From Octopus sinensis (Eukaryota), in assembly GCF_006345805.1 (NCBI RefSeq), contig NW_021829578.1:1-6034 (forward strand): a stretch of DNA of 6,034 nucleotides, in the 5' to 3' direction. Under the pieces are notes generated by a model. The model ran no database searches. It was not told the DNA's origin and was given only the letters and a program-made list of their open reading frames with translations. This document shows, piece after piece, positions 3,733-5,624 of this stretch (within the stretch, counting starts at the first letter, position 1; every line of letters begins with the position of its first letter). Both the position numbers and the translations under genes were made by a program.

Positions 3733-3934
3733 CCGTGTGACCTCGTGCGTACCGTTGGCGATTTTTTTTCCTCTGTCTTCCCTTATCAGGATCTTTCTTT
3801 CTATGTTTCCGACGAAGAGTTCCGCTCGAAACGTTAAACCCTCCTTCTTTCCTTCTTTCCTGAGCGTCCAATAATACTATATTTGTTCCACGTCCTCGCG
3901 TTGTTGTGTTTTTGTACTTTCTTGTTGGATTAAC
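3731..3934 (+). mobile_element. Probable Penelope-like element terminal-repeat (pLTR) remnant carrying a minimal hammerhead
   Basis: About 200 bp of pyrimidine-rich sequence bounded by (TG)n and (TA)n arrays. Contains a minimal type I hammerhead, a motif class known to mark PLE pLTRs. Confidence 0.6.
3805..3839 (+). ncRNA. Minimal type I hammerhead ribozyme motif (dimer-type)
   Basis: Stem I GUUU (3805-3808)/AAAC (3836-3839). Core CCGACGA (3809-3815, U4C variant) plus an extra A. Stem II GAGU/GCUC (3817-3820/3824-3827). GAAA at 3828-3831. Palindromic AACGUU replaces stem III. Predicted site GUU, after 3835. Confidence 0.75.
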
Positions 3935-4013
3935 TATATATATATATATTATATCTATATATTATAATATATATATATAGATATATATATATTATATATA
4001 TATATATTATATA
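3935..4013. repeat. Imperfect (TA)n microsatellite
   Basis: Direct reading. Confidence 0.95.
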
Positions 4014-4031
4014 GTTGTTCGCCAAAAAAGT

Positions 4032-4833
4032 TCGTTTTCTATGTTTTTGTTTTTTATGTTCTCGTTTCTCATTCTATCCACGTTTTTTTATGTCCTGTTC
4101 CCATACATGCATGTATCTATACGTAGGTATGTAAAAATATGATTGTATATATGCATATATTTATATATTATTTATATAATTATATGACCGAACAACGCAT
4201 TCTTGTCAAAGTAAGTTTTATTTTAATAATTACGATGCGCACCCTTATTCAATCTCTTTTCTGTCTCTCTATCTCCCACTCTTGTCCTTCTTTCTTTCTG
4301 TGTTTCTCTCCCACCCTTTCCCTATTCTTCTCCTCTCCCCTTCACCGTTCCCTCTCTCTCACTCTTCCTCCTTGACTTTCTCGTTGATCACACGTGACTA
4401 ACGGCCATTCTCTCTCTCTTCCACTTCCTTCCTAAAGACAAGACCTGCTCGTTTTTCTAGCGTTCACCACCTCACCTCGTCTTGACTTAACAACCCTCAC
4501 CGTTTGTTTTTACTGTCTTGTTCTCACTGTCCTGTTTTTCTTACCACTTTAACCCACCGCAAAAAGTCCCAAAATTTATTAATTTGCTTTGCGGAAAGGA
4601 CTGTTTTAATGACGTCGCGTCTTGTCCCTACCTTCGAACGCGGAGTAGATAAAACAGGGGACAACTGATGAAGGGAATGTTCTTTATTTTGCATATCTCG
4701 GTTCTCTATTTGTTTGTTTTTTATGTTCTCGTTTCTCATTCTGTCCACGTATTTTTTATGTTTTAACCCATATGTGCATGTATATATACATATATATGTA
4801 GGTATGTACATATATTACGTATATATGCATATA
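4032..4833 (+). mobile_element. Probable truncated Penelope-like retroelement remnant bounded by ~130-bp direct repeats
   Basis: Direct repeat 4032-4159 vs 4698-4833, with 30 nt identical (4046-4075 = 4713-4742). Internal CT-rich tract at about 4253-4430, hammerhead-like motif at 4601-4675, possible GIY-YIG C-terminal relic at 4187-4253. Flanked by (TA)n on both sides. Confidence 0.55.
4601..4675 (+). ncRNA. Permuted hammerhead-like RNA motif, copy 1
   Basis: GUC at 4619-4621. Stem I UUGUCCC (4622-4628)/GGGACAA (4658-4664) abuts CUGAUGA (4665-4671). Stem III UCGCGU (4615-4620)/ACGCGG (4638-4643). GAA at 4636-4638 is one A short of GAAA. Possible stem II UUC (4633-4635)/GGG (4673-4675). Confidence 0.55.
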
Positions 4834-4902
<69 letters not shown>

Positions 4903-4931
4903 TATAGATATATATATATATATATAATACA

Positions 4932-4975
<44 letters not shown>
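4830..4975. repeat. Imperfect (TA)n/(TTA)n microsatellite
   Basis: Direct reading. Confidence 0.96.
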
Positions 4976-5237: not shown

Positions 5238-5624
5238 GGCGCAGGAGTGGCTGTGTGGTAAGTAGCTTGCTAACCAACCACATGGTTCCGGGTTCAGTCC
5301 CACTGCGTGGCACCTTGGGTAAGTGTCTTCTGCTATAGCCCCGGGCCGACCAATGCCTTGTGAGTGGATTTGGTAGACGGAAACTGAAAGAAGCCCGTTG
5401 TATATATGTATATATATATGCGTGTGTGTGTTTGTGTGCCTGTGTTTGTCCCCCCTAGCATTGCTTGACAACTGATGCTGGTGTGTTTATGTCCCCGTTA
5501 CTTAGCGGTTAGAATAAGTACTGGGCTTACAAAAGAATAAGTCCCGGGGTCAAGTTGCTCGATTAAAGGCGGTGCTCCAGCATGGCCGCAGTCAAATGAC
5601 TGAAACACGTAAAAGAGTAAAGAG
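5238..5624 (+). mobile_element. Near full-length tRNA-derived SINE (family B) inserted in a (TA)n array
   Basis: Starts GGCGCAGGAG. A-box TGGCTGTGTGG at 5248-5258 and B-box GGTTCAGTCCC at 5291-5301. Internal (TA)/(TG) tract at about 5401-5440. Short repeated tail GTAAAAGAGTAAAGAG. (TA)n on both sides. Second copy at 2392-2685. Confidence 0.9.

Follow-up and report, generated by a model that had tools for sequence, protein, structure and literature searches.

Among described systems, the closest to the element reported here are hammerhead ribozymes of types SGC and CSG, which have the same four inner helices and cleave in vitro (Eckert et al. 2023, PMC10085705). Type SGC (HRIMA-1 and its variants) comes from metatranscriptomes, with none from a known organism's genome, and its block C is unbroken and was assumed to be unbreakable; type CSG (CSG-1 and CSG-2) consists of five soil-metagenome sequences without context (PMC10085705). 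Metazoan non-LTR retrozymes, which are non-coding hammerhead tandem units tied to Penelope-like elements (PMC7229834; 10.64898/2026.07.22.740005), carry type I hammerheads, as do Penelope elements, and the 2026 preprint on animal retrozymes searched for type I only (10.64898/2026.07.22.740005). Craig et al. 2021 (PMC8557442) described Naiads as devoid of canonical hammerheads, with an occasional 'core' or 'half core' that they note without explaining. In the structure of a pseudoknotted (PK) hammerhead, A9 is sheared on G12 above the G10.1-C11.1 pair (PDB 8YDC; PMC11300833), and the core insertions listed by Perreault 2011 lie at other places than the A9-G10.1 step. What is said here of published work refers to the portions of those papers and supplementary files that were consulted.

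The window, the whole 6,034-nucleotide stretch of Octopus sinensis DNA analysed here, holds the parts of a hammerhead in the order S-G-C, where block S is stem III, GUH and stem I, and block G is stem II, GAAA and stem III. We read it as a decayed, likely self-cleaving hammerhead, located close to a non-coding retroelement's 3' end and predicted to fold by itself into six helices, in which the bond between A9 and G10.1 is likely replaced by two stacked helices, because the 5' strand of stem II lies upstream (4595-4599). We put the probability of this reading at roughly 0.6.

The element copy in the window

The copy belongs to a non-coding retroelement family, F1, and spans 4015..4850 on the forward strand (BLAST to the tandem unit of locus L016 matches 4015-4794 and 4569-4851). 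It is a partial tandem in which a 667-base unit is preceded by the 3' tail of another (about 4015-4185), with a direct repeat (4034-4089 and 4701-4756) at a spacing of 667, and TA runs flank it at 3935-4013 and 4781-4975.

All parts of the ribozyme lie on the forward strand. Block S (4615..4628) comprises the stem III 3' strand and GUC, with UCGCGU at 4615-4620 and C4621, and the stem I 3' strand UUGUCCC (4622-4628); the predicted cut falls between C4621 and U4622. Two bases (4629-4630) link stem I to stem II. Block G (4631..4643) follows with the stem II 3' strand CCUUC (4631-4635), GAA (4636-4638; GAAA minus one A) and the stem III 5' strand ACGCGG (4638-4643). The stem I 5' strand GGGACAA (4658-4664), which makes seven pairs with block S, and the core CUGAUGA (C3-A9, 4665-4671) together occupy 4658..4671, and AGGG (4672..4675) stands immediately 3' of A9. 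The first-pass annotation, made from the letters of this stretch, had placed all of these hammerhead parts correctly, including the 7-bp stem I and the GAA one A short, and rightly held that their order is not that of types I, II or III (CGS, GSC and SCG); the core is pseudoknotted. It had taken AGGG for a stem II strand, and three more helices had escaped it, together with the strand that really pairs with CCUUC; these begin some 50 bases before its coordinates, in 4553-4608.

These upstream parts begin with the 5' strand of P4 (4553..4556; CCCA in the window, CCCU family-wide), whose partner is AGGG at 4672-4675. The P0 hairpin (4557..4594) pairs CCGCAAA (4557-4563) with UUUGCGG (4588-4594) and abuts position 10.1 flush, and the stem II 5' strand comes next (4595..4599; GAAGG in the family, with A in the window at G10.1). 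The third helix, P5, pairs CUGUUUUA (4601..4608) with UAAAACAG (4650..4657); it links the far strands of stems I and II and is the equivalent of the stem I-II interaction helix in types SGC and CSG. The RNA thus reads P4 5', P0, stem II 5', P5 5', block S, block G, P5 3', stem I, CUGANGA, P4 3'.

Compared with the consensus of 30 F1 copies anchored independently of the core, the window's copy is 93% identical. As the annotation had suspected, it is probably inactive, judged from its sequence, because GAAA is one A short, position 10.1 is A instead of G (A4595) and A4556 breaks a P4 pair. An Rfam scan of the window gave no hammerhead match, in line with the earlier expectation that standard descriptors would miss this arrangement.

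Other repeats share the window. A minimal type I hammerhead-like motif with U4C lies at about 3806-3838 (within 3750-3935), in the apparent 3' end of another Penelope-type repeat; it has CCGACGA, an extra A, a 3-bp stem II, GAAA and a palindromic stem III. A decayed hammerhead-like motif lies at 2181-2225, where CUGAUGA leads into a short stem and GAAA and stem III has no matching partner. Two copies of a short interspersed repeat, at 2414-2480 and 5240-5620, are 75% alike over 67 bases; this repeat is very common in the fetched loci, ARAGORN found no tRNA, and we take it to be an octopus SINE. Another repeat-like block lies at 1330-1710.

Copies, conservation and covariation

A DNA search with the stretch gave 2,441 candidates; the 40 of these that were scored are, the window itself excepted, 89-93% identical. 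Exact matches in the genome to patterns of the block order number 2,097 and 1,750 (3,847, some double-counted), against 15 and 15 (30) for the reversed control, so the order does not arise by chance. A 24-base motif of the 3' tail has 5,076 genome matches and none in the control. The hammerhead family is real and has at least 5,000 copies in the genome. In sequencing contigs, F1 is abundant in organisms C and D, and a more diverged form occurs in E (runs X16, X17 and X19 against L150).

A first BLAST sample was skewed to copies without GAAA (6 of 34 parsed), and because of this bias it was replaced by 90 F1 copies selected by anchors outside the core (L127-L156 and L177-L236). CGAAA is intact in 49 of these, CUGANGA in 69, UH in 86 and G10.1 in 81. 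Position 17 is C in 63, A in 21, U in 4, G in 1 and a gap in 1, and position 7 differs between subfamilies, both within hammerhead rules. The family consensus and the subfamilies have CUGANGA, GAAA and UH beside three stems; that the consensus would keep GAAA and CUGANGA, and that stems I and III would covary, had been proposed as checks in the annotation, and both hold. In 15 of the 90 copies A13 of GAAA is replaced (by G in 6, U in 6 and C in 3), whereas the remaining non-polymorphic A positions, among them the A of a different CGA, show 1-7 substitutions; candidate explanations are a hot spot of mutation, inactive master copies, or selection acting on copies that cut, to their disadvantage.

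Covariation was assessed on an unfitted MAFFT alignment of 17 F-type copies, over six helices and 31 pairs. In it, 86.2% of cells are paired, against 40-48% for slid partners. Two-sided changes affect 11 of the 31 pairs and 44 cells, levels reached by 31 (pairs) and 0 (cells) of 500 shuffles, tests that are inflated by the relatedness of the copies. Stems I and III covary, and P0 is 100% paired, with 2 of its 4 counted pairs changed on both sides. P5 is only 58% paired in this unfitted alignment; among the 90 F1 copies one of its pairs is U-A in 63, U-G in 8, C-G in 16 and C-A in none, a series that is probably one evolutionary path. P4 has 3-4 bp in F1 and is weak in family N1. Folding without pseudoknots gives P4, P0 and stem II for one family F2 copy, and single-copy folding energies, also pseudoknot-free, are not clearly above shuffles (z -1.3, 0.1, -1.7 and -2.5).

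In the fold that we propose, P4 would stack on P0 like a nicked helix, with the ends at the nick leading to A9 and G10.1. By analogy with the PK hammerhead, this staple could keep A9 on G12 above the G10.1-C11.1 pair, and the chemistry would be the usual one, with G12 as base and the 2'-OH of G8 as acid. As a monomer, the fold needs the long P5-stem III hairpin to bend back on itself. The split core might instead, as the annotation had also allowed, be assembled between two copies, on one tandem transcript or on separate molecules, each RNA having a straight P5-stem III hairpin and a stapled base (stem II 5' strand, stem I strand and CUGANGA) that docks on its neighbour's loop. Partial tandems of 384-890 bases are common, minimal Penelope hammerheads reportedly cut as dimers, and the P5-stem III linkers look too short or symmetric for fold-back in several families: the junction is a symmetric purine-rich loop in F1, and it has only a 1-base bulge in one published Naiad record. 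For some type SGC RNAs, Eckert et al. point to the same steric difficulty (PMC10085705). We nevertheless consider such pairing unlikely. The junction has a kink-turn or a 6-base bulge in N1 (a canonical kink-turn, with both GA steps in 22 of 30), in a LINE-like family and in coral Naiads, which a straight hairpin would make superfluous; a second copy lies within 1.5 kb in only 3 of 30 unbiased F1 loci; and short SGC and CSG transcripts cut co-transcriptionally, molecularity apart (PMC10085705).

Genomic 5' ends and insertion

One hundred copies were collected by their 3' tail alone, as the first 100 matches on contig 1; 98 aligned under strict gap costs, and removal of 4 duplicates left 94. 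Starts pile up just after the GUH site: counted from the predicted cut, 21 of the 94 copies start at 0 to +14, 6 at +15 to +29 and 21 at +30 to +134, and the 45 bases upstream of it hold a single start. The corresponding rates per base at risk are 0.029, 0.0064, 0.0026 and 0.0006, and the peak has p of about 3e-12 against downstream and about 2e-10 against upstream sequence. TA/AT microhomology is lowest in the 0 to +14 interval, and looser gap costs give the same picture. With a TA-anchored pattern, 28 of the 31 loci listed start, by eye, at or after the cut; the N family had TA-flanked starts at only 12 loci. Since many copies begin right at the predicted cut, this genomic footprint suggests that the hammerhead cuts in living cells. 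The ends are spread over 0-14 bases and not concentrated at 0, which counts against this conclusion.

The same scatter would suit a fold that does not cut at all and serves the reverse transcriptase as a recognition or stalling signal, with 5' ends made by enzyme stops or a protein nuclease. All tested core positions are kept in only 33 of the 90 F1 copies, and cutting itself is a prediction. Stalling is disfavoured because a stalled enzyme stops at the 3' side of a structure: coming from the 3' end it would meet this one first at +37 to +55, and no pile-up occurs there. The edge instead lies at the GUH site, with the sequence upstream nearly empty, and even families that differ completely in their stem sequences retain every catalytic base. 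We regard a non-cutting signal as distinctly improbable.

A spliced transcript that crosses the site uncut, abundant in one run's contigs, also counts against cutting; it is without P0 and P4 and carries C11.1U. At L125 (C6, about 110.11 Mb) and L121 there is an EGF-like repeat exon with a GU donor, and the exon is joined to an element copy that lies 1.6 kb downstream in sense orientation, the junction falling exactly at CAG|GAAGG, so that P0 and P4 are dropped. The junction was found in contigs of two runs (X1 and X10, on L074:1475) that were taken as RNA by guess. Where a family has CAG, the 3' arm of P0 serves as splice acceptor. That P0 is only a splice acceptor was considered and rejected: in F1 the AG is CGG, and the paired base has changed too.

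In the self-cleaving reading, the cut after H17 would release element RNA from read-through or tandem transcripts, and a borrowed reverse transcriptase, Penelope-like (Naiad) more likely than LINE, would copy both cut and uncut RNA into TA runs. A TA run lies within 450 bases downstream at 20 of 30 loci, against 8 of 30 for a control stretch. Units are 670-890 bases long and mostly single or partial tandems. Five head-to-head pairs occur among the first 100 tail matches and fit Penelope-type insertion as drawn by Craig et al. (PMC8557442). With partial tandems, an inverted 5'-truncated partner and insertion into TA runs, the family shows these features of Naiads, and the annotation's guess of a Penelope-type repeat is borne out. 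No ORF with an N-terminal GIY-YIG endonuclease and a reverse transcriptase was found in the unit or beside F-type copies, and tblastn with pieces of reverse transcriptase, a search swamped by a short repeat, found no reverse transcriptase beside F-type copies. For the Naiad enzyme itself, a first pattern gave 0 matches and a relaxed one 29; at 5 of 20 Naiad-type reverse transcriptase loci a related N-type motif lies 1.4-3.0 kb downstream on the same strand, and an F-type motif at 0 of 20.

Stem II, other carriers and known hammerheads

The position of the stem II strand decides how this element differs from type SGC. Of the 127 stretches matched, 13 proved unrelated or truncated; the other 114 form 10 subfamilies, and 73 of them were parsed. 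Between subfamilies the bases 3' of CUGANGA vary, and the upstream GAAGG, a perfect pair to CCUUC, is constant. It stands at a fixed distance, flush after P0 in 9 of 9 parsed subfamily consensuses, and makes at least 4 Watson-Crick pairs in 59 of 73 copies and at least 5 in 54 of 73 (shuffle null 1.5%). The bases after CUGAUGA, with which the annotation had built stem II, probably wrongly, reach at least 4 in 0 of 73; they pair instead with the C-run before P0, as P4. Stem II is invariant inside F families and so without covariation there, and its compensatory changes come from comparison between separate families, in part by eye: GAAGG/CCUUC, GACACC/GGUGUC and GGGGCC/GGCCCC in the same genome, and GGCUCC/GGAGCC, GGCCCC/GGGGCC, GACGCC/GGCGUC and GGGGA/UUCCCC in published Naiad ends (by eye), each Naiad version accompanied by its own P0 and P4. 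A plain type SGC hammerhead, in which CUGAUGA and 1-2 extra bases are followed by a G-run that pairs with CCUUC through one G-C and G-U pairs, is very improbable: the G-run can make 3-4 pairs including G-U in most F families (89.7% paired) and natural hammerheads can have short stems II (PMC3088659), but this register does not covary, a slid register pairs better (95.6%), it is impossible where C-runs follow CUGANGA, and the length of the G-run tracks the upstream C-run.

The same split-core fold occurs in other elements. By eye, at least 10 of the 54 Naiad records in the Craig 2021 consensus file end 3' in it: Naiad_Bfor, three coral records, Naiad_Obim, Naiad_Ovul and four more. Stem II is particular to each of the ten records, and several have no bases after CUGANGA that could pair with C11.1. 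Naiad_Bfor has a stem I of only 2 bp, and its P0 and P4 are incompletely visible; in Naiad_Obim and Naiad_Ovul the fold lies in sense about 900 bases after the ORF, and a Naiad_Ovul-like family has 300 exact pattern matches in the genome (control 0). Seven records in the nematode part are, by eye, intact type CSG hammerheads with the helix layout of CSG-1; a match of CSG-1 itself to a nematode Naiad proved to be a wrong-strand coincidence. Among the bivalve and hemichordate Naiad ends examined, no such motif was found. Hemichordate 3' ends (File S5, near parts 25-26) share a different conserved, structured-looking motif with no obvious hammerhead core. Several ends in the arthropod part (Craig 2021 File S5, near parts 16-19) have, by eye, stem I, stem III and CUGANGA in the S-G-C order, and a hairpin apparently inserted before GAAA, possibly a second way of splitting the core.

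A LINE-like family carries the fold as well, about 290 bases downstream of the end of its ORF in 21 of 30 loci; the ORF end has 430 exact matches in the genome (control 0). CGAAA is intact in 16 such loci, of which 9 form 5 or more upstream stem II pairs and only 1 forms any pair in the annotation's register. Its C-terminal motifs may be those of a HERO-type LINE, a kind that encodes a reverse transcriptase plus a restriction-like endonuclease; Pfam gave no informative match to the ORF.

The annotation's claim that no natural hammerhead has this order fails, because the order is that of type SGC, already published (PMC10085705). As far as the consulted portions of Eckert et al. go, the split-core wiring lies outside their six permutations. 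Our literature search, which covered openly available papers and the main texts of preprints, found no split-core wiring and no non-circular hammerheads in retroelements. We think it quite probable that this is a seventh natural hammerhead wiring, active in vivo with a discontinuous, stapled core that may cut as pairs, and that it is an ancient portable module of Naiads (from comb jellies to octopuses) and of an unrelated LINE. On this account the Naiad clade would carry non-circular permutations (CSG, split-core and perhaps SGC with an insert), recording their origin by re-opening of tandem or circular RNA.

If true, this would overturn the working rule that CUGANGA and the stem II strand are inseparable, give non-circularly permuted hammerheads their first home in an animal genome, and explain why Naiads lack canonical hammerheads alongside their 'half cores'. 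The edge of 5' ends would be a rare in vivo read-out of a ribozyme's role in Penelope-like retrotransposition. That one clade has both CSG and split-core forms offers a testable route by which non-circular permutations could have arisen, and the added helices are a new site for building switches into hammerheads.

Compared with known systems, the element shares with type SGC the S-G-C order, the short linker between stems I and II, the I-II interaction helix (P5) and all core bases (PMC10085705). Unlike type SGC, it has no stem II strand 1-2 bases after CUGANGA; that strand is moved to the front, P0 and P4 are inserted between A9 and G10.1, and the form exists in thousands of animal retroelement copies. 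The layout of type CSG, P5-I-CUGANGA-II-P5-S-G, is that of the seven nematode Naiad ends, with no sequence homology seen between them in the records consulted, and re-opened after A9 it becomes the window's element. The wiring may thus be viewed as type CSG or SGC circularly re-opened at a fourth point, which is what tandem or circular RNA would allow. With Naiads the family shares TA-run flanks, 5' truncation, partial tandems and head-to-head pairs (PMC8557442), but it is non-coding and without a shown sequence link to a Naiad ORF. Like the metazoan retrozymes, it is a non-coding hammerhead unit, but its tandem unit has no type I hammerhead. The PK hammerhead likewise builds a pseudoknotted scaffold around the same core, but there A9 and G10.1 are covalently joined and the connectivity is pistol-like (PMC11300833), whereas in the element described here two stacked helices likely take the place of that bond.
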